A program made the position numbers and the translations under genes. Of a stretch of 6,082 bases of DNA, positions 1 through 6,082 are shown in pieces. Position 1 is the first letter of the stretch; every line of letters starts with the position of its first letter. The notes beneath the pieces are model-generated. The model had not been told where the DNA came from. It did no database searches and saw only the letters and a list, made by a program, of their open reading frames with translations. The DNA comes from a virus: positions 1 through 6,082 of the IMG/VR virus record IMGVR_UViG_3300020041_000036; one strand, 5' to 3'.

Positions 1-121
1 GGACGGATTGTCAGAGTCAAGAGCAAACGAAGATTTAGCATAAAGAAGTCTATTCGCCATAGGCCACGCGAAAGAATAGAGACCCCACTGCGAATAACCG
101 TAATAGTTTCGGACGATATCC
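1..121. repeat. Terminal redundancy, left copy (identical to 5962-6082); marks circular closure of a 5961-nt genome
   Basis: Base-by-base comparison of 1-121 with 5962-6082 shows no mismatch. The capsid reading frame runs through the repeat. Confidence 0.97.
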
Positions 122-618
122 CAATAAGCCAAATAAGTATCGGCGTTAGACCATTGCGTCATCGAGGCGTTCGACGGAAGCGCCACGGAGGTTAAAGGGG
201 TCCCGCCTATATTACTTTTATTTCCAACGCGAAGCCAAGAAAAAAGGGAATTTACGTACGATGCACCAAAGCGGTTAGAATTGAGCGCGCCGGTATCAGT
301 CATGGTAGAACAAATCCAATTTGTGCTCAAATCATTCATATCAAACTTACTACTGTTCGTCCGAAGTTCAGGGTGATACAGCTGAAGCGGCACCCAAAAA
401 CGGTGCAAACGAATGGTGTAGGGATTAAATGTCGGAACGGCAAGGGGATTACTTCGAACATCGACGCCTTGCTCAATAGACACACGATCGCGGGCGTTAA
501 TAAAATCGATTCGCACCGGATATAAAATACCCGGCGTACATGTAAAGGCTTTACTCTCGGGAAGGTCGTAACGAGAATAACCATTTACAACGTGAGAAAT
601 AAAAGGTTGTTTTCCCAT
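1..618 (-). CDS. VP1: Major capsid protein, N-terminal 206 codons. It continues across the circular junction into 5961..4774, giving 601 aa in full.
   Basis: Manual translation of the minus strand from the ATG at 618-616 gives MGKQPFISHVVNGYSRYDLPESKAFTCTPGILYPVRIDFINARDRVSIEQGVDVRSNPLAVPTFNPYTIRLHRFWVPLQLYHPELR... with no stop down to base 1. This is in frame with the MANRLLYAK Met at 60 (=6021). The pattern (G.L.P, then an acidic/D..V segment, then R..P, then FWVP..L) matches the conserved N-terminus of microvirus F/VP1 capsid proteins. The ORF track misses it because no stop lies inside the window on this side. Confidence 0.88.
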   Translation of the reverse strand, partial: MGKQPFISHVVNGYSRYDLPESKAFTCTPGILYPVRIDFINARDRVSIEQGVDVRSNPLAVPTFNPYTIRLHRFWVPLQLYHPELRTNSSKFDMNDLSTNWICSTMTDTGALNSNRFGASYVNSLFSWLRVGNKSNIGGTPLTSVALPSNASMTQWSNADTYLAYWDIVRNYYGYSQWGLYSFAWPMANRLLYAKSSFALDSDNPS

Positions 619-621
619 AAA

Positions 622-1692
622 TTAAATAATTAGTTGAAGTTTGTAATGATCTTGCCAGAATTGAAGAATATCCAAGTCTAGCCAAGTAGGAGGGTCAAAA
701 TCGGGCATCTTGCGAGAGGAAGCAGAGAAACGCATCATCTGCTTCTGCTCCCACGTGTATGTCTCTCTACGGGATACGGAGGAATCGAGACCGAACCGCT
801 TAACACACAAAGACACAATACGCTTAACCAGAGGAGACTTGCTAAAACGTGCATAGCTATCAGCAGAGGCAATCGAACGTGCGACCTCATCCTCTTGTTT
901 AAGATATTTAAGATAGTATCGAGGGATCGAGTAATTATAATTGATGCGCTTCTCAAAATCGAAATAAGACCACGTCGAAGTATAAGTAGAAGGACGAGGC
1001 ATATAACCGAGAAAATCACCAACGCCAGCAGATACGAATTTTCGCGTATAACGGCGATGTTGGAGGAGAGAAGATAGAGGTGTAGCTTTTCCATTTATAG
1101 TAACAAATTTACCCGAGACATCTTCGGGGTCAAACTGAATTTGTTTAGTAACATATTTAACAACATATCGAGCTCGCTTGTGCGTACCTTTTCCGAGCCA
1201 GACGAAACCAAGGTCTCCGACGGCCTTCCGAATTTCGTTGTAAAGAACGTTAGTTCCAAAAAGAAAACCATGGAAATGTAAGCGCGGCTCAGAGCCAATT
1301 TCGGGATGGGTGCCAAACTCCTGAAAAAACGCATGTTTAAAAGAGTGGCCAAGACTATGCCGAACCCGCTCGTTCCATCGTCGAATAAAGCAAGCCGGGT
1401 CAAGAAGAGCCTCCTGGTAATACTTAGGAGCAATCGTAATAGTAATAAATATCGCCTGCTGGTACTCAGCCTTGCAGCGAGCAAGCTCACGCTCGAGCCG
1501 AACAAACCAGTTATTGCGCTGACGACGCAGGCACTCTTCGCATTTACCACACGGGACCATGAGCCATTGGCGAGCGACATCCCAAGGACGGAGAGCTAAG
1601 GCAGACTTAGCAACGTCAGAACCATTTCGACAAGGATTCTTCTTGTCAAAATAACGACGATTACGTATCCATATGGGAGAAGAGCAGGGCAT
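622..1692 (-). CDS. VP4: Replication initiation protein (rolling-circle HUH endonuclease, microvirus VP4/gpA family), 356 aa from the ATG at 1692
   Basis: Motifs read in the translation: N-terminal MPCSSPIWIRN; the cysteine cluster PCGKCEECLRRQRNNWFVRLERE; FITITI (motif I-like); LHFHGFLFG (HUH motif); ARYVVKYVTK (YxxKY catalytic tyrosine pair). The track's start at 1713 is a TTG. The first ATG, at 1692-1690, overlaps the upstream stop as ATGA. Confidence 0.93.
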   Translation of the reverse strand: MPCSSPIWIRNRRYFDKKNPCRNGSDVAKSALALRPWDVARQWLMVPCGKCEECLRRQRNNWFVRLERELARCKAEYQQAIFITITIAPKYYQEALLDPACFIRRWNERVRHSLGHSFKHAFFQEFGTHPEIGSEPRLHFHGFLFGTNVLYNEIRKAVGDLGFVWLGKGTHKRARYVVKYVTKQIQFDPEDVSGKFVTINGKATPLSSLLQHRRYTRKFVSAGVGDFLGYMPRPSTYTSTWSYFDFEKRINYNYSIPRYYLKYLKQEDEVARSIASADSYARFSKSPLVKRIVSLCVKRFGLDSSVSRRETYTWEQKQMMRFSASSRKMPDFDPPTWLDLDILQFWQDHYKLQLII

Positions 1693-1892
1693 CAGAGTAA
1701 GCTTTGAAGACAATCAAATCTAATACTAGGATGATCGAGACGACAGCGAACAAGGTAGTCATTCGCGGGAACCTCGTCAGCAAACCAGGCGATGACAACT
1801 CGCTTTCTGCCTCTATATGCGCCAACAGAATAACGATAAGAGATGCTATTGACAACAGGAGAAAACCTAGGGCGAAAATCGAAATAATCCAT
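1692..1892 (-). CDS. Hypothetical small protein, 66 aa from the ATG at 1892, translationally coupled to Rep
   Basis: The ORF is MDYFDFRPRFSPVVNSISYRYSVGAYRGRKRVVIAWFADEVPANDYLVRCRLDHPSIRFDCLQSLL. Its TGA at 1694-1692 shares bases with the Rep ATG at 1692-1690. It lies on the same strand as all other genes. I recognise no family. Confidence 0.45.
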   Translation of the reverse strand: MDYFDFRPRFSPVVNSISYRYSVGAYRGRKRVVIAWFADEVPANDYLVRCRLDHPSIRFDCLQSLL

Positions 1893-1913
1893 AATCAAGA
1901 AAAGTAATACTTT

Positions 1914-1942
1914 GCGCTTCGAAAGACGGTACTTTCGAGCGC
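1914..1942. other. Stem-loop: 11 bp with one bulged T and a 6-nt loop
   Basis: gcgcttcgaaag / acggta / ctttcgagcgc. The pairs run 1914-1942 through 1925-1932, with t1919 bulged. It lies in the non-coding leader between the predicted promoter and the first gene. Confidence 0.6.
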
Positions 1943-1968
1943 GAAAACTGTTTCGTTACGCCGCTCGA

Positions 1969-1997
1969 CGGCCTTAACGGCCGGGACGCTTCGCGTC
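1969..1997. other. Two adjacent short GC-rich stem-loops
   Basis: cggcc-ttaac-ggccg spans 1969-1983 and gacgc-ttc-gcgtc spans 1985-1997. Both stems are 5 bp. Confidence 0.4.
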
Positions 1998-2026
1998 TTC
2001 GAGCTCCATGGCTTCACTTCACGATC

Positions 2027-2055
2027 TATATACCGAATAAATTCGGTGAATTCAA
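2027..2055 (-). promoter_or_regulatory. Candidate sigma70-type promoter reading into the 66-aa ORF/Rep/capsid operon
   Basis: On the minus strand, TTGAAT (2055-2050) is followed by a 17-nt spacer (2049-2033) and TATATA (2032-2027). Each hexamer matches consensus at 4 of 6 positions and the spacing is ideal. It sits just downstream of the terminator hairpin in the largest intergenic region. Confidence 0.4.
2032..2047. promoter_or_regulatory. Perfect palindrome accgaat-aa-attcggt filling the promoter spacer; operator-like site or small hairpin
   Basis: A 7+7 nt inverted repeat with a 2-nt centre, read directly. It occupies 2032-2047, between the candidate -10 and -35 hexamers. Confidence 0.5.
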
Positions 2056-2065
2056 GAGCAAGAAA

Positions 2066-2092
2066 TCCCAGGGGAGAGCGACTCCCCTGGGA
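2066..2092 (-). terminator. Rho-independent terminator candidate closing the minus-strand transcription unit
   Basis: The stem is 10 bp, cccaggggag (2067-2076) pairing with ctcccctggg (2082-2091), plus a t2066-a2092 closing pair; the loop is 5 nt (agcga). On the minus strand the hairpin is followed by TTTCTTGCTCTT. It starts 9 nt after the last stop codon (2102-2104). Confidence 0.6.
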
Positions 2093-2101
2093 GCTAACGG
2101 C

Positions 2102-2176
2102 CTAAAGAATTCTACCTCCAAGCGGACGAGTTACAACTTTAGTGCCTTTTCCTTTTTTCTTTCGTCGTGCTTTCAT
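2102..2176 (-). CDS. Candidate J-like / ORF8-like small polybasic DNA-packaging peptide, 24 aa
   Basis: The ATG at 2176-2174 gives MKARRKKKGKGTKVVTRPLGGRIL followed by TAG. It has 10 basic and no acidic residues and a short hydrophobic C-terminus. It is the last coding element before the terminator. It overlaps the 3' end of the 107-aa gene in the +1 frame. The call rests only on composition, size and position. Confidence 0.4.
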   Translation of the reverse strand: MKARRKKKGKGTKVVTRPLGGRIL

Positions 2177-2462
2177 CACAATCAAGATCAAAATCAAACA
2201 TAAGAACAATAGTATTATCGAAAAACTCGATGCTAAAACCAGAGAGGGTGCTGCAGGCGCTAATAAAGTCAGAGATTTCCGAGTGATCAACGTAGAGCGA
2301 ATCGCTAATACTCGAACTCTTCAGATAGGGCGCGATAGGAGAATTCTCGATAGCATCAAGAGGAATAGGAGTAAACTGACCGTTTTCGATACGACCAACT
2401 TGGGCGAGGTCAATTTTCAAAGCCGGATTAACTCGGCGAATAACAACATGGATCTGTGTCAT
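2139..2462 (-). CDS. Hypothetical protein, 107 aa
   Basis: ATG at 2462 and TAA at 2139-2141. It lies 11 nt downstream of the preceding gene on the same strand. The sequence is protein-like, with an acidic FDFDLDCDE segment and a KEKRKRH tail. I recognise no family. Confidence 0.55.
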   Translation of the reverse strand: MTQIHVVIRRVNPALKIDLAQVGRIENGQFTPIPLDAIENSPIAPYLKSSSISDSLYVDHSEISDFISACSTLSGFSIEFFDNTIVLMFDFDLDCDESTTKEKRKRH

Positions 2463-2473
2463 AACAATGTAGC

Positions 2474-2794
2474 TTAAAGTTTTACTTGAAGTTCAGCACA
2501 AAAGCGCTCCCAGGCGGCAGACTCTTTGTGCCAAAAATCAACACCTTCAGGCGTCGTCCAAAAAAGGAACGCAGAGGAAATAAGGCGACTCGGGCCAAAG
2601 CAAGAACCGTAAAGAGTACGCCGAACGTGGGAGCGCAGACGATCGCGAAAACTCTTGCGAGGCGAGAAATTGCGCTCGTAATTCTCTTTAAAAGCGACGA
2701 GTATTCCTCGACGGACGAGCCATTCAAGGAAAGCATACTCTACAACGTCGATCAACAAGTCGTTGACCCTAACACTTTCACTAGATGTTTTCAT
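2474..2794 (-). CDS. Hypothetical protein, 106 aa
   Basis: ATG at 2794 and TAA at 2474-2476. The composition is globular-looking (FLEWLVRRGILVAFKENY ... TPEGVDFWHKESAAWERFC). It lies on the same strand as the conserved genes. I recognise no family. Confidence 0.6.
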   Translation of the reverse strand: MKTSSESVRVNDLLIDVVEYAFLEWLVRRGILVAFKENYERNFSPRKSFRDRLRSHVRRTLYGSCFGPSRLISSAFLFWTTPEGVDFWHKESAAWERFCAELQVKL

Positions 2795-2880
2795 AATGAT
2801 GTGGTTATTGGTTTACAGTGCAAAGATGAAACAAAAAAAACGAATAACAGAGTCCTAGAAGTCGAAAAAGTTGATCAGTT

Positions 2881-4137
2881 TCACCTTACATAACGACGGC
2901 TAGATTTTGTAGTGCCGGCATATCTGCCATCTTTGCCGAAAATTTCTCTACTCTCATCGTAATCAACAGGAGTAGGACGTTTAGTTGTAGCCGCGCCAGC
3001 GACAGCTATGGCACCAACCAAAGCGGTTCTCGCCATGCTATAACCAAAAGCATTTTTGCTGGATCGGTTTTGGAACCAGCGACCAGAAAGATCTTGTTCA
3101 CCTTCTGAAGCAGCGAGACCCATAAGTTTCTGGTGGATCTGACGACCTGTCATCTTTGTTGTCTTGCCGGTAGGCTTACCTTTTTCATTAACCTCTGGAA
3201 CGTCGACCACTGCGTCCCAATTAAGGTTAAACCACTCGCGAAGATCAGCCAAGTTAACCTTACGTATCTCGGACTCAACGCCTAAAACATCGCCGGAAGC
3301 GGCGGATTCGTAGGCGGCGGCAAAATCCCGAACAATCTGGGCAGCGTAAACAGCATCGAAGTATTTGTCGTTATACTTCTTGATCTGATTTGCCTCTTCA
3401 ACATGCTTTGAATACATGGCAACAAAGTCTTGAAACTTATATGTAGCCATAAGATCAGCATATTCAGCGTCAGCAGTATGGATATCAGCCAAAGCGCGAT
3501 TAAGGCGGACTAATTCGGAAACATTGTCGATATGATGCTCTAAGGACTTCTTTTCCAACTCATCCATCTCCTTTCGCCAGTCTGCGCTATGAGTGTTGCC
3601 TCTCATGAGTTCAGCTTCGGCGTTATCGCGATTAGCGGCAGCGTCGTTACGATTGACTGAAGAACGAGCCATCATATTTTGCGCAATAGCGGTAGGATCG
3701 GTGGCCGCAAAACCACCAGGAGCAATAGGCGAACCACCCGAAGGGCCAGAGGCGGAAGGCATGGAGGCAGAACCGCCGGACATGGTAGCATTAACACCGA
3801 CACCAGAGGCGCCTAGAACGGCAGCAGGCGTTACGCCGGCCTTCGAATAGCGATCAAAGACCTTCGAGGGGTCATTGTAGGCGTTTTCGTAGTCAAACTG
3901 TTTCTGCCAATTAGCATAGGAAAGTTCGGACTGCTTCTGCATCTGCTCGAGGGCATACTGTTGCTGAAGCTTCATCTGTTTTTGCTGAAACTTCCACTGG
4001 CGACGAGCATTCATGCCACCAAAAAGTTGGCCCAAAAAACCGTTGATCAAACCGGTAGTGCCGGTAGAAGCAGCAGATTCGCCAAGAGCGCGACCAAAAG
4101 AGGTAGAAGCGGCAGCGGCGGCAATAGGGGCAGGCAT
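2881..4137 (-). CDS. VP2: Minor capsid / DNA pilot protein (VP2 or gpH-like), 418 aa
   Basis: The N-terminus is Ala/Gly-rich and hydrophobic (MPAPIAAAAASTSFGRALGES...GLINGFLGQLFGG). A Gln/Lys-rich heptad-like segment follows (RRQWKFQQKQMKLQQQYALEQMQKQ), then YNDPSKVFDRYSKAGVTPAAVLG, a Gly/Ser/Ala/Pro low-complexity linker, a long helical region and a C-terminal hydrophobic patch (ALVGAIAVAGAATT). This architecture, its size as the second-largest structural ORF and its position are typical of microvirus pilot proteins. Confidence 0.72.
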   Translation of the reverse strand: MPAPIAAAAASTSFGRALGESAASTGTTGLINGFLGQLFGGMNARRQWKFQQKQMKLQQQYALEQMQKQSELSYANWQKQFDYENAYNDPSKVFDRYSKAGVTPAAVLGASGVGVNATMSGGSASMPSASGPSGGSPIAPGGFAATDPTAIAQNMMARSSVNRNDAAANRDNAEAELMRGNTHSADWRKEMDELEKKSLEHHIDNVSELVRLNRALADIHTADAEYADLMATYKFQDFVAMYSKHVEEANQIKKYNDKYFDAVYAAQIVRDFAAAYESAASGDVLGVESEIRKVNLADLREWFNLNWDAVVDVPEVNEKGKPTGKTTKMTGRQIHQKLMGLAASEGEQDLSGRWFQNRSSKNAFGYSMARTALVGAIAVAGAATTKRPTPVDYDESREIFGKDGRYAGTTKSSRRYVR

Positions 4138-4138
4138 A

Positions 4139-4330
4139 CTATACGTGAGTTAAATTGTTAGAACGAATGATGTAATCAACGCGTACTGTATCAATGTGAA
4201 TACCGTTACGCTGCATCCTAGCCTGAGCGGCGCACGATGATAAGAAGAAGGCGGCCAAAGCAGCAACAATGGAAGAAACGAGTGTCCAAAAAGCCTTCGA
4301 CTTATAAAAAGGGATCTTAGTGTCTGGCAT
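4139..4330 (-). CDS. Small secreted lipoprotein or single-pass membrane protein, 63 aa
   Basis: The sequence is MPDTKIPFYKSKAFWTLVSSIVAALAAFFLSSCAAQARMQRNGIHIDTVRVDYIIRSNNLTHV. It has a Lys-rich n-region, an 18-residue hydrophobic core, and L30-S31-S32-C33, which fits the lipobox pattern [LVI][ASTVI][GAS]C. The TAG stop is 1 nt before the VP2 ATG. Confidence 0.55.
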   Translation of the reverse strand: MPDTKIPFYKSKAFWTLVSSIVAALAAFFLSSCAAQARMQRNGIHIDTVRVDYIIRSNNLTHV

Positions 4331-4362
4331 AATTTTGAAAAATTAAAGAACGATAGAAAAAT

Positions 4363-4433
4363 GCGCGACCTCTCCTGCAGTCGTTACCAATAACCTCTAG
4401 CAATTCACGAACTCTTGCAAGAGGGGTCCGCGC
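4363..4433 (-). terminator. Long imperfect stem-loop followed by a T-tract: candidate leaky terminator/attenuator or ssDNA structural element
   Basis: The arms are gcgcgacctctcctgcag (4363-4380) and cttgcaagaggggtccgcgc (4414-4433). They form about 15 Watson-Crick pairs, with one bulge (c4428), one mismatch and two G-T positions, and a GCGCG base. The inner loop is about 34 nt. On the minus strand the hairpin is followed immediately by ATTTTTCT. Confidence 0.35.
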
Positions 4434-4464
4434 ACGTAGCATATATCGTCAAGTAAAGAGTACA

Positions 4465-4761
4465 CTATTTTTCTTCAGGATTAGAGGGCGTTGAAGCAGG
4501 CTTGGACTTATCAAGCTGAGAATCAATAAGTTCCTGACCAACCTCGAGACCATCAAACTTATCCATACGAGAGAAGGAATTAGGGTCGAAGTCAATTTCG
4601 GGGTTGAACCTTTCACCCTTATCGAAGTCAGAAGGTTCGGCTGCCACATCCGGACGACCGGGAAGGACGTCAACGGAGCCGGAACCATCAAGAACGGAAA
4701 GAATACGCTGACCGCGAGAAACATATGCGGGGGCATCTTCTAATAACCAATCAAGTGCCAT
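4465..4761 (-). CDS. Hypothetical acidic protein, 98 aa; possible scaffolding-type protein
   Basis: The ATG at 4761 is 12 nt after the capsid stop; TAG at 4465-4467. The protein is rich in D/E (MALDWLLEDAPAYVSRGQRILSVLDGSGSVDVLPGRPDVAAEPSDFDKGERFNPEIDFDPNSFSRMDKFDGLEVGQELIDSQLDKSKPASTPSNPEEK). I recognise no family, and the scaffold role is only a positional and compositional guess. Confidence 0.55.
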   Translation of the reverse strand: MALDWLLEDAPAYVSRGQRILSVLDGSGSVDVLPGRPDVAAEPSDFDKGERFNPEIDFDPNSFSRMDKFDGLEVGQELIDSQLDKSKPASTPSNPEEK

Positions 4762-4773
4762 AAGATTATAGTA

Positions 4774-6082
4774 TTAACGATTAGACAAACGAGTAGCAAA
4801 TGTTTTGTTCACCAAATTCTTCTTCTGAACAGCATAGGACATATTTACAAAGAAATTATCCTCCACCTTAGACGCAAAAGGAGAGTTAACCTGCGACATA
4901 TCGGTAAAAAGCACCGGGTAATAATGAGACACAGGCAGACTGCCAGAACCATCGGAGAGTTTAGCGGATCGCTGTTGTACCCAATAGGAATAAAGGGGAA
5001 TAAAAGTCGAGCCGGAAACCTCTGGAAGAGGATAAGCCTGGAGTTGTCCAAGAACCTCATCATAGGACGCTCGAAACTCGTTAAAACACGGTTCGGAAGC
5101 GGATGTGGCGCTCGCGTTTCCATTGAAAACTATCCGAGCCGAAGGAACATCCTGATAGCCAATATCGTTATAAATAGGGTTGAAATAGTCAGAACCCTGG
5201 TAGTTGAGGTAGTCCGGCTTAACAAAACTCCAGTAATAAACAGGTCGAATACTCAACATGTCAATCATATAGCCAGGTTCGCGGAAGTAGTAAGACTGTC
5301 GACGACCTAACCGATCGTTAAAAGCGATAGCGCCACCCTGCTGTCCCAGAGGGCCAAACAAGCTCGAACCGGCGAGGTTATTTTGTCCAGCCTGATTCAT
5401 AATAACCTGCACATTAACTGTCTGTGATGCGCTAAATAAAAGTTTAGGTCGATCGACATGCTCAATCTTTGAAGCAAAAAATGTCTCCAGCCAATCGCTG
5501 TAACGATTGCCTCCGGCGCCGAGAAGGTCCTTGTATTCTTGAAGACGCGAAGCGATAGCCAATTGAGGAATCGTGCTAACGCCAGACATAGACACGGCGG
5601 CGGATGTACCAGTGGGGAGAAGACGACTAAATCGGTCGGGGTTTGAGGGAACAACCGCCATAGGATGGGCGACCAAAAAATAAGACAAGGCAGAGTTGGC
5701 AGTCGTCGCAGGGGTTGCAGAAATCTGAGACTTAATGCCGTCAGACCCGAGCAAAGTGGAATCCGGGTAAGTGTCATCAACAGGAAAACCGTCTCCGGTG
5801 CTACCCATACTATCTAAATCCGAGCGAATAATCTGAAAGAAAAGATTACCGCGGTTAAACGTATTATTGGTAGAGGTAACGGCCGAGGGATAAAATTGGC
5901 TCTCGAAATACGCATCCAAAAATTCAAGGTTTCCGTAACATTGCGTAAAAAACCTCGAGTCGGACGGATTGTCAGAGTCAAGAGCAAACGAAGATTTAGC
6001 ATAAAGAAGTCTATTCGCCATAGGCCACGCGAAAGAATAGAGACCCCACTGCGAATAACCGTAATAGTTTCGGACGATATCC
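4774..6082 (-). CDS. VP1: Major capsid protein, C-terminal part. The frame is open to the window edge, and Met 6021 in the ORF track is internal.
   Basis: It is the longest ORF in the window, with a TAA stop at 4774-4776. The frame stays open upstream of 6021 (DIVRNYYGYSQWGLYSFAWP-M...) and joins 1-618 through the repeat. The 601-aa size and composition fit a non-Bullavirinae microvirus jelly-roll capsid protein. Confidence 0.9.
   Translation of the reverse strand, partial: DIVRNYYGYSQWGLYSFAWPMANRLLYAKSSFALDSDNPSDSRFFTQCYGNLEFLDAYFESQFYPSAVTSTNNTFNRGNLFFQIIRSDLDSMGSTGDGFPVDDTYPDSTLLGSDGIKSQISATPATTANSALSYFLVAHPMAVVPSNPDRFSRLLPTGTSAAVSMSGVSTIPQLAIASRLQEYKDLLGAGGNRYSDWLETFFASKIEHVDRPKLLFSASQTVNVQVIMNQAGQNNLAGSSLFGPLGQQGGAIAFNDRLGRRQSYYFREPGYMIDMLSIRPVYYWSFVKPDYLNYQGSDYFNPIYNDIGYQDVPSARIVFNGNASATSASEPCFNEFRASYDEVLGQLQAYPLPEVSGSTFIPLYSYWVQQRSAKLSDGSGSLPVSHYYPVLFTDMSQVNSPFASKVEDNFFVNMSYAVQKKNLVNKTFATRLSNR
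5962..6082. repeat. Terminal redundancy, right copy (identical to 1-121)
   Basis: Exact 121-nt match to the start of the window. Confidence 0.97.

Follow-up and report, generated by a model that had tools for sequence, protein, structure and literature searches.

What does the 63-codon open reading frame (ORF) immediately upstream of the DNA pilot gene VP2 of a small microvirus encode, and could it be the means by which such phages leave their hosts? The ORF lies in IMG/VR record IMGVR_UViG_3300020041_000036, of which positions 1 to 6,082 were analyzed (this whole 6,082 nt stretch is called the window below). A 6-kb phage that is lytic must have some means of lysing its host. Microviruses rank among the most abundant phages in the guts of animals and humans, and in this family a lysis mechanism is known only for phiX174 and has not been described outside its group (PMC3394797); no homolog of its gene E was found in Bacteroidetes proviruses, and no E-like or J-like gene had been recognized in Bacteroidetes-associated microviruses (PMC3091885). 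The evidence presented here indicates that the ORF is a genuine, strongly constrained gene and a core gene of a large clade of animal-gut microviruses, and it strongly supports a lipoprotein-type precursor as its product; our reading of that product as a release (lysis) factor that would disrupt the host envelope is a tentative one.

The 63-aa product, MPDTKIPFYKSKAFWTLVSSIVAALAAFFLSSCAAQARMQRNGIHIDTVRVDYIIRSNNLTHV, has the layout that the initial annotation ascribed to it: lysines at positions 5, 10 and 12, a hydrophobic core, the sequence LSSC ending in Cys33, and a 31-aa mature part are all present as described. The lipoprotein precursor criteria applied were PROSITE PS00013/PS51257 and the DOLOP rules. 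LSSC (residues 30-33) matches both PS00013, {DERK}(6)-[LIVMFWSTAG](2)-[LIVMFYSTAGCQ]-[AGS]-C, and the classical lipobox pattern [LVI][ASTVI][GAS]C; the cysteine lies within positions 15-35, K5 provides a K/R among the first seven residues (K10 and K12 lie beyond), and the 20 residues of A13-S32 stand at the long end of the ~7-22 uncharged residues expected of an h-region. The hydropathy of this region reaches a maximum of ~2.1 (Kyte-Doolittle, 19-mer), residues 13-32 include no proline, and by hydropathy the protein has no C-terminal transmembrane domain (TMD). An AlphaFold2 model from a 32-sequence alignment is one long continuous helix with pLDDT values of 89-94 in the transmembrane (TM) part and 56-76 in the mature part; its high confidence is limited to the TM part, and it is uninformative on the mature peptide, which has a predicted net charge of ~+2 and an alternating, strand-like pattern.

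The lipobox is invariant in the family. From all proteins and loci, 292 distinct sequences of this gene and its relatives (the module) were gathered, and 288 are intact with the cysteine. Of the other four, one is frameshifted and one truncated, and these are the sole true exceptions; the remaining two, though flagged as lacking the cysteine, do carry [SG]-C (a mis-registration of the regular expression). In the 288 intact variants only three residues occur directly before the cysteine (position -1), S in 256, G in 27 and A in 5; S, A, T and V predominate at -2 and L, T and V at -3, and the distance from a conserved FW to the cysteine is 19 residues in 283. Syntenic homologs keep the cysteine and the small -1 residue without exception. 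An invariant Cys, a small -1 residue and a fixed spacing match what signal peptidase II would require and a plain membrane anchor would not need, and these patterns strongly support the assignment of the 63-aa product as a lipoprotein-type precursor. The initial annotation had described a lipobox-bearing small gene for a lysis or superinfection-exclusion lipoprotein; the first part of that description is well supported, and the second is a reasonable hypothesis. In the Bacteroidota, export of lipoproteins to the cell surface is directed by a signal at +2..+6, K-(D/E)2, Q-A-(D/E)2 or SDDDD (PMC5080379). This motif follows the cysteine in none of 170 family proteins (a lone E occurs at +2..+6 in 5/170), and the window protein has AAQAR there, so the product, if lipidated, should face the periplasm.

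A protein search matched 372 clusters, and for the best 120 the best local alignment with the window protein shows 83-100% identity; relatives are encoded on 162 IMG/VR stretches, and 80 related IMG/VR genomes were fetched for alignments. Nucleotide diversity among 77 aligned relatives is 0.108, 0.058, and 0.463 at codon positions 1, 2, and 3, and third positions are ~4-8 times more variable than first and second ones (77-79 relatives). The ratio of nonsynonymous to synonymous substitution (dN/dS; Nei-Gojobori) is 0.064 versus 2.4-2.8 in the two other frames, although saturation of dS (~1.36) makes the value for the gene approximate. A whole-genome alignment of 61 genomes displays the same phase signal precisely over 4330..4151, and third-position diversity in the gene is 0.42-0.49 versus 0.03-0.17 at the other positions. 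M1 and Cys33 are found in 79/79 relatives and a length of 63 codons in 77/79; wherever the junction with VP2 is readable (77 relatives), it has the form stop-N-ATG. Because of this codon-phase pattern, the low dN/dS, the conserved start, stop, and length, and hundreds of homologs, we conclude from the alignments that the ORF is a genuine gene under strong constraint. The initial annotation had reasoned that absence from close relatives would suggest a spurious ORF; a syntenic homolog is present in every related genome examined, under strong purifying selection. Current annotations either leave the gene out, label its product a "hypothetical protein", or join it to the non-coding sequence before it as a 100-aa protein. 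The 37-aa upstream extension of that database protein was considered and rejected, since the stretch is conserved equally at all three codon phases, which marks it as non-coding; it is also out of frame in the window.

The gene is widespread. A profile search of 1.8 billion cluster representatives gave 64 matches at E ≤ 1e-3 (50%-identity level), of which 63 carry the module and look microvirus-like; the exception (P0178) is a spurious repeat protein. Searches with three variants (tBLASTN) against GenBank phages found ~65-70 microvirus records, all from animal feces, and one nr record (P0099) had already been named "lipoprotein [Microviridae sp.]" automatically. Every one of the 24 GenBank microviruses whose nucleotide similarity to the window is substantive has the gene, so on this genomic evidence it belongs to the core genes of a large clade of microviruses from animal guts. 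Integrated microvirus prophages with the module gene also occur in Alistipes montrealensis and in metagenome contigs of Bacteroidales-like character, where hisG, znuA and similar genes flank them; the prophage of A. montrealensis kh20 (NZ_JAGYXY010000001.1, ~131.4-136.3 kb) points to the Bacteroidales as hosts of the clade. Shine-Dalgarno sequences are generally unused by Bacteroidota, and the AT-rich leader of the 63-aa gene, which has no Shine-Dalgarno sequence before the start codon, fits such a host.

Conservation is stronger in the signal than in the mature peptide: the dN/dS values within the window clade are 0.045 for the signal part and 0.086 for the mature part. Across lineages the n- and h-regions are nearly constant (LLxSKKFWTLVAAIVAALxAFF..[SGA]C), whereas the mature peptide (~30 aa) falls into at least four mutually dissimilar types, with motifs GVHxDTVRVDY, HYVVQSASSVKSGDTTRTTITYEQ, HRVQQTA..DSVVMTIIYD, and STTLTVRGAQVDSLDF; all four are short, basic, and alternating strand-like. 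Residues P7, F8, Y9, S11 and K12 of the n-region are invariant in 79 close relatives, distant lineages retain SKKFW, and type-1 relatives keep a G43-x-H45-x-D47-T48-V49 motif in the mature peptide. Because ordinary signal peptides are not conserved like this, the segment, whether a cleaved signal peptide or an uncleaved TM helix, looks functional with a sequence-specific role of its own. Its conservation keeps alive the alternative of a TM protein like E of phiX174 and also suggests an "active signal peptide" like that of the colicin-release proteins. Recent swapping of mature types between conserved flanks was examined and found no support, as the flanking genes of type-2 and type-3 genomes are just ~70-75% identical to those of the window.

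No known family accounts for the protein. Searches with the window protein gave no significant family in Pfam, NCBIfam, or PHROGs (no Pfam match at E ≤ 1; the best PHROG match, at E = 0.2, involves TM sequence only), and the family profile found no match in the PDB sequences at E ≤ 1. Matches to the PADLOC family PDC-M02A (E 0.003-0.02) were discarded as noise, each of its three models being matched by 1/26 family members. The type-2 and type-3 variants have sub-threshold matches to the YgdI/YgdR and Lpp/OprI models, confined to the signal-plus-lipobox part and scoring 12-16 bits against curated cut-offs of 42-43; the window protein itself matches neither. These families and entericidin B (PF08085) are similar to it in plan (precursors of ~45-70 aa, a lipobox, mature parts of ~25-50 aa) but are chromosomal bacterial genes rather than phage genes. 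In the literature we found no paper that links microviruses with a lipobox and no described lysis gene outside phiX174. The protein thus appears to be a small phage-encoded lipoprotein of no known family, in a virus family where none has been characterized.

What might such a protein do? We tentatively propose that it is an envelope-disrupting release (lysis) factor, either like the bacteriocin release proteins (BRPs) or of the membrane-anchored single-gene type, and not a hydrolase. In the scheme that we infer for its export, lipidation, cleavage, localization, timing, and lytic effect, it would be translated from the structural-gene block, coupled to VP2, and the precursor, Sec-type with a 32-residue signal, would insert in the inner membrane, where Lgt would lipidate Cys33 and signal peptidase II would cut before it. 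The two products would be a 31-residue basic lipopeptide on a periplasm-facing leaflet, without the Bacteroidota surface-export signal, and the Ala-rich signal peptide, unusually conserved, which would stay behind in the inner membrane in free form; both together would disrupt the envelope and so release the phage. A lysis or release role is favored because the gene is core, constrained, membrane-targeted, located in the structural block and apparently VP2-coupled, and because the clade has no hydrolase. Its conserved N-terminal TM segment, as in TMD-driven lysis proteins, supports this role, and the presence of a lipoprotein pathway in the host phylum Bacteroidota fits it. PHROG and Pfam scans found no hydrolase or holin family in any window ORF, and an M15 peptidase is absent from the window and from 142/142 module-bearing loci. 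The cultured Bacteroides microvirus phiHBP1 carries an M15 peptidase (PMC13064476), and the peptidase-bearing Bacteroides microviruses examined, phiHBP1 among them, are without the module. Should the gene encode a lysis factor, the short list of "protein antibiotics" would gain a mechanism and possibly a new Bacteroidales antibacterial target; as a conserved clade-wide gene of lipoprotein type with a mutational handle in Cys33, the gene opens the lysis question to direct experiment.

The closest parallel is with the colicin/bacteriocin release proteins (PF02402). These are also tiny lipoprotein precursors, with mature parts of ~28-33 aa (31 here), and their cleaved signal peptide is stable and contributes to lethality; in the window family the signal is likewise the most conserved part. 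The role proposed here, cargo release through envelope damage without a hydrolase, is theirs as well. Unlike them, the window protein has no sequence similarity to BRPs and no PF02402 match, belongs to an ssDNA phage of Bacteroidales rather than an enterobacterial colicin operon, and has a strand-like, basic mature peptide; BRPs act through OMPLA, which is not known to be relevant here. The spanins (o-spanin Rz1, u-spanin T1 gp11) are likewise very small phage proteins with an outer-membrane-lipoprotein signal at the N-terminus, but family scans of the window ORFs found no i-spanin partner, endolysin, or holin, and the window mature peptide has no proline-rich region, extra cysteine, or C-terminal TMD.

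The module is found in two locations across lineages, immediately upstream of VP2 or upstream of Rep, and its Rep-adjacent forms have a further peculiarity. Besides short forms they include long forms of ~190-220 aa (Table 1), in which the module is followed by ~110 residues without amino-acid conservation and then by a conserved basic tail (...RRGGRRGKxRPKxTKxIPLGGSHL) just before the Rep ATG. The middle part is overprinted on a conserved gene, "B", in a different frame; neither the 106-aa nor the 107-aa ORF of the window has detectable homology to B. Since the chance that the long frame stays open given the B protein is 0.05-0.44 and 26 of the 30 long representatives reach the tail (the other four are artefacts of contig ends or frameshifts), selection appears to keep the long ORF open. 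No consistent start codon for the tail itself was found in the long forms. With lipobox, ~110-aa spacer, short hydrophobic stretch, and basic tail, the long forms are superficially similar to the u-spanin T1 gp11; the hydrophobic stretch, of only 9-15 residues, seems to be a side effect of the overlap with gene B. The window lineage has the tail as a free-standing, highly basic 24-aa ORF ~2 kb from the module gene. This ORF overlaps, in a different frame, the 3' end of the 107-aa ORF; the ATG is kept in 56/56 readable relatives, and from ~2170 the phase signal follows the frame of the 24-aa ORF. The peptide is similar to the J/VP8 DNA-binding peptides, and a J-like peptide has been reported missing from Bacteroidetes-associated microviruses (PMC3091885).

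Several points weigh against the release-factor proposal. We know of no single-gene lysis protein that is a lipoprotein. Colicin-release proteins act via OMPLA in enterobacteria, and to our knowledge no OMPLA-equivalent route is known in Bacteroidota. Single-gene lysis proteins are usually fast-evolving and arise de novo (PMC7693330), whereas the module family is conserved across lineages whose Rep proteins are merely 28-50% identical, and the measure of constraint within the window clade is itself an approximate one, as noted above. The complementary distribution of the module and the M15 peptidase is confounded by phylogeny, as the two groups differ in genome architecture. A simple lysis model does not explain the fusion of a lipoprotein signal with a J-like tail in the long forms. 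Finally, there are other candidates. A 119-aa ORF embedded in Rep has two strongly hydrophobic segments; the third-position diversity of Rep falls from ~0.48 to 0.10-0.26 exactly over it, and it is open at identical length in 50/50 aligned relatives and kept at 116-119 codons in nearly all sampled genomes with Rep 66-90% identical. Given the Rep protein, the probability of such an open frame arising by chance is ~0.05. The ORF is probably a genuine overprinted gene for a two-TM membrane protein, and it is a rival lysis candidate. The initial annotation had called the 63-aa gene the best lysis candidate in this genome; it is still a candidate, but "best" is not secure beside this conserved ORF. 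In lineages with a Rep-adjacent module another small ORF (~41-58 aa), with an N-terminal TM segment and a basic C-terminus, directly follows VP2, and these ORFs are further unannotated candidate membrane effectors.

A bolder form of the release-factor proposal seems improbable to us: that this is the first lysis system of an ssDNA phage to depend on the lipoprotein pathway, in which the module would hit a conserved envelope-biogenesis target of the Bacteroidales, the mature lipopeptide would be an exchangeable specificity or anchoring part, and the sister-lineage fusion to a J-like packaging tail would be without precedent. Candidates for this target are the Lgt/LspA/Lol route itself and a membrane step in the synthesis of the wall.

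A different role, somewhat unlikely in our estimation, is superinfection exclusion or receptor masking, in which the periplasmic lipopeptide would block the receptor or entry channel used by capsid and pilot and thereby prevent reinfection of infected or lysogenic cells and loss of progeny on debris. Like T5 Llp and phi80/N15 Cor, the product is a small phage-encoded lipoprotein predicted to face the periplasm. In the window lineage its gene adjoins, and is probably translationally coupled to, a recognition/entry gene, VP2; it adjoins VP2 in many other lineages as well but precedes Rep in others. The existence of at least four dissimilar mature types is what would be expected of a receptor-specificity determinant, the neighboring VP2 is hypervariable, and in phiHBP1 capsid and pilot mutations alter host range (PMC13064476). 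Temperate relatives exist as well, and in them the module is the first gene beside a dif-like attachment motif. The window has no such site, however, so this phage may be strictly lytic. The protein has no sequence relation to Llp, Cor, or any PADLOC or Pfam family, and its mature part is half the size of Llp. Its gene is also no patchy accessory one but a core gene that evolves very slowly and is retained universally in genomes of 6 kb, and in many genomes that gene is beside Rep and not VP2. The greater conservation of the signal than of the mature part would be unexpected if the mature peptide alone mattered. If the gene did turn out to act in exclusion, no such factor would have been described before in Microviridae, and the finding would bear on gut phage-host dynamics.

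An uncleaved, single-pass protein acting like phiX174 E (an MraY inhibitor; PF04517) is less probable still. Its N-terminal TM helix would inhibit a conserved inner-membrane enzyme of envelope synthesis, and the cysteine would not be lipidated but kept for helix capping, packing, or a disulfide. Both are small Microviridae membrane proteins with a conserved, probably functional N-terminal TM helix and a basic, replaceable C-terminal part. The 20-residue TM segment is long enough to span the membrane and is the most conserved element in all lineages, with its 19-residue FW-to-Cys spacing and an Ala-rich packing face, and the single continuous AlphaFold2 helix, confident in the TM part only, agrees with an anchor. 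The C-terminal domain of phiX174 E is dispensable, and here the C-terminal part is replaceable, with four types and, in some lineages, a 110-aa unconstrained spacer. A plain anchor would have no need of S/G/A at -1 and an invariant Cys at the exact end of the hydrophobic stretch (288/288), a lipobox that E does not have, and the n-region is positively charged as in cleavable signals. The segment has no TM proline like P21 of E, the protein shows no similarity to E and no match to Pfam Microvir_lysis, and the gene is not embedded in another.

It is quite improbable that the protein is instead an accessory of the virion or its assembly, that is, a membrane-active peptide acting with VP2 and the J-like peptide in DNA delivery or membrane packaging rather than in killing the host. 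Such a role would account for the ~26 representative lineages in which the module is the N-terminus of an ORF ending in a J-like tail, always open despite the chance values given above, and for the coupling of the window gene to VP2, whose own conserved N-terminal region is also Ala/Gly-rich and membrane-active; TM segments do occur in the pilot proteins of microvirus virions (PMC3091885). In gokushoviruses, however, VP1 and VP2 were the only virion proteins found (PMC3091885), and Sec/SRP would capture a hydrophobic lipobox signal, leaving the peptide unavailable to cytoplasmic procapsids; moreover, the module and the J-like peptide are separate genes in the window lineage. Lastly, a spurious ORF, a chance open frame in an intergenic spacer, might have been suspected from its shortness, the missing Shine-Dalgarno sequence (usual in Bacteroidota), and the lack of a known family, but this is ruled out for practical purposes by the codon-phase pattern and dN/dS, the conserved start, stop, and length, and the hundreds of homologs in diverse microviruses.

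The first and last 121 bases of the window (1..121 and 5962..6082) are an exact direct repeat. The window therefore covers the whole of a circular microvirus genome, 5,961 nt in true length, and runs on beyond the point where it began. Its GC content is 46%, and every gene is on the minus strand (Table 1). The 63-aa gene has its own slot between the VP3-like ORF and VP2, immediately upstream of the pilot gene as the initial annotation had placed it; a single base separates its stop codon from the VP2 ATG, and translational coupling of the two genes across this junction is probable.

Table 1. Positions of the 63-aa gene, its parts and neighbors in the window, and of related features in other module-bearing loci
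Sequence	Feature	Coordinates	Strand	Remarks
Window	VP1 capsid gene	618 wrapping across junction to 4774	minus	601 aa
Window	Acidic 98-aa ORF	4465..4761	minus	Slot of VP3-like scaffold according to Krupovic and Forterre (PMC3091885)
Window	Conserved structured non-coding element	4338..4477	minus	~135 nt, between 98-aa ORF and 63-aa gene
Window	63-aa gene, lipobox-bearing precursor	4139..4330	minus	63 codons + TAG; ATG start 4330, TAG stop 4139..4141
Window	n-region M1-K12	4295..4330	minus	MPDTKIPFYKSK; K5, K10, K12
Window	h-region A13-S32	4235..4294	minus	AFWTLVSSIVAALAAFFLSS; 20 uncharged residues, Ala-rich helix
Window	Lipobox L30-S31-S32-C33	4232..4243	minus	Cys33 codon 4232..4234, predicted lipidation/cleavage site
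Window	Predicted mature peptide	4142..4234	minus	CAAQARMQRNGIHIDTVRVDYIIRSNNLTHV; 31 aa
Window	Junction TAG-T-ATG	4135..4141	minus	Stop of 63-aa gene, single base, VP2 start
Window	VP2 DNA pilot gene	2881..4137	minus	Downstream neighbor; PHROG 8689 "pilot protein for DNA ejection", E = 9e-9
Window	VP2, N-terminal third	~4030..3731	minus	Highly conserved
Window	ORF of ~106 aa	2474..2794	minus	106 aa
Window	ORF of ~106 aa	2139..2462	minus	107 aa
Window	24-aa ORF, J-like	2102..2176	minus	MKARRKKKGKGTKVVTRPLGGRIL
Window	68-aa ORF	1692..1898	minus	TTG start
Window	Rep	622..1713	minus	
Window	119-aa ORF embedded in Rep	735..1094	minus	+1 frame of Rep; hydrophobic segments ~21-39, ~77-97
L005	Long form (long-form loci include prophages)	4088..4687		
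L007	Long form	1512..2114		
L090	Long form	4688..5320		
L091	Long form	7001..7609		
L092	Long form	2432..3025		
L097	Long form	1440..2027		
L115	Long form	154..726		
L091	dif-like motif	~6915..6930		
L092, L115, L007	dif-like motif			~80-90 nt upstream of long-form ATG
L088	Small TM ORF after VP2	3349..3474		
L089	Small TM ORF after VP2	3519..3695		
L090	Small TM ORF after VP2	3610..3735		
L005	Small TM ORF after VP2	9264..9389		

Where the module lies upstream of VP2, and only there, it is always preceded by the conserved structured element. Diversity in the element is 0.03-0.11 at all three phases, a conservation above that of any coding region, and its identity is 72-93% in genomes that are ~70% identical in their coding regions. 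It contains a nested long-range stem, GAAGAAAAAT/ATTTTTCT and GTGCGCGG/CCGCGCAT, with 2-6 compensatory pairs. An Rfam scan of the whole window gave no match at E ≤ 1. The element may be a complementary-strand origin or an RNA regulatory element.

The temperate relatives carry, just upstream of the module gene, a motif (A)TTATGTTAA(A/C/G)T that is a match or near-match to the XerD arm of the bacterial dif consensus, which agrees with the proposed XerCD-mediated integration of Bacteroidetes microviruses; no convincing match to such a site was found in the window. The N-terminal third of VP2 is highly conserved (diversity of 0.02-0.15 at codon positions 1 and 2), and the rest of the gene, ~300 codons, is hypervariable at all codon positions (0.3-0.6), which suggests diversifying pressure on the pilot protein. 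A 68-aa ORF that overlaps the Rep start has a codon-phase signal of its own and a conserved stretch, ..FDFRPRFSP..YRGRKRVVIAWF.., that is found again in relatives, and it is probably a real small gene.

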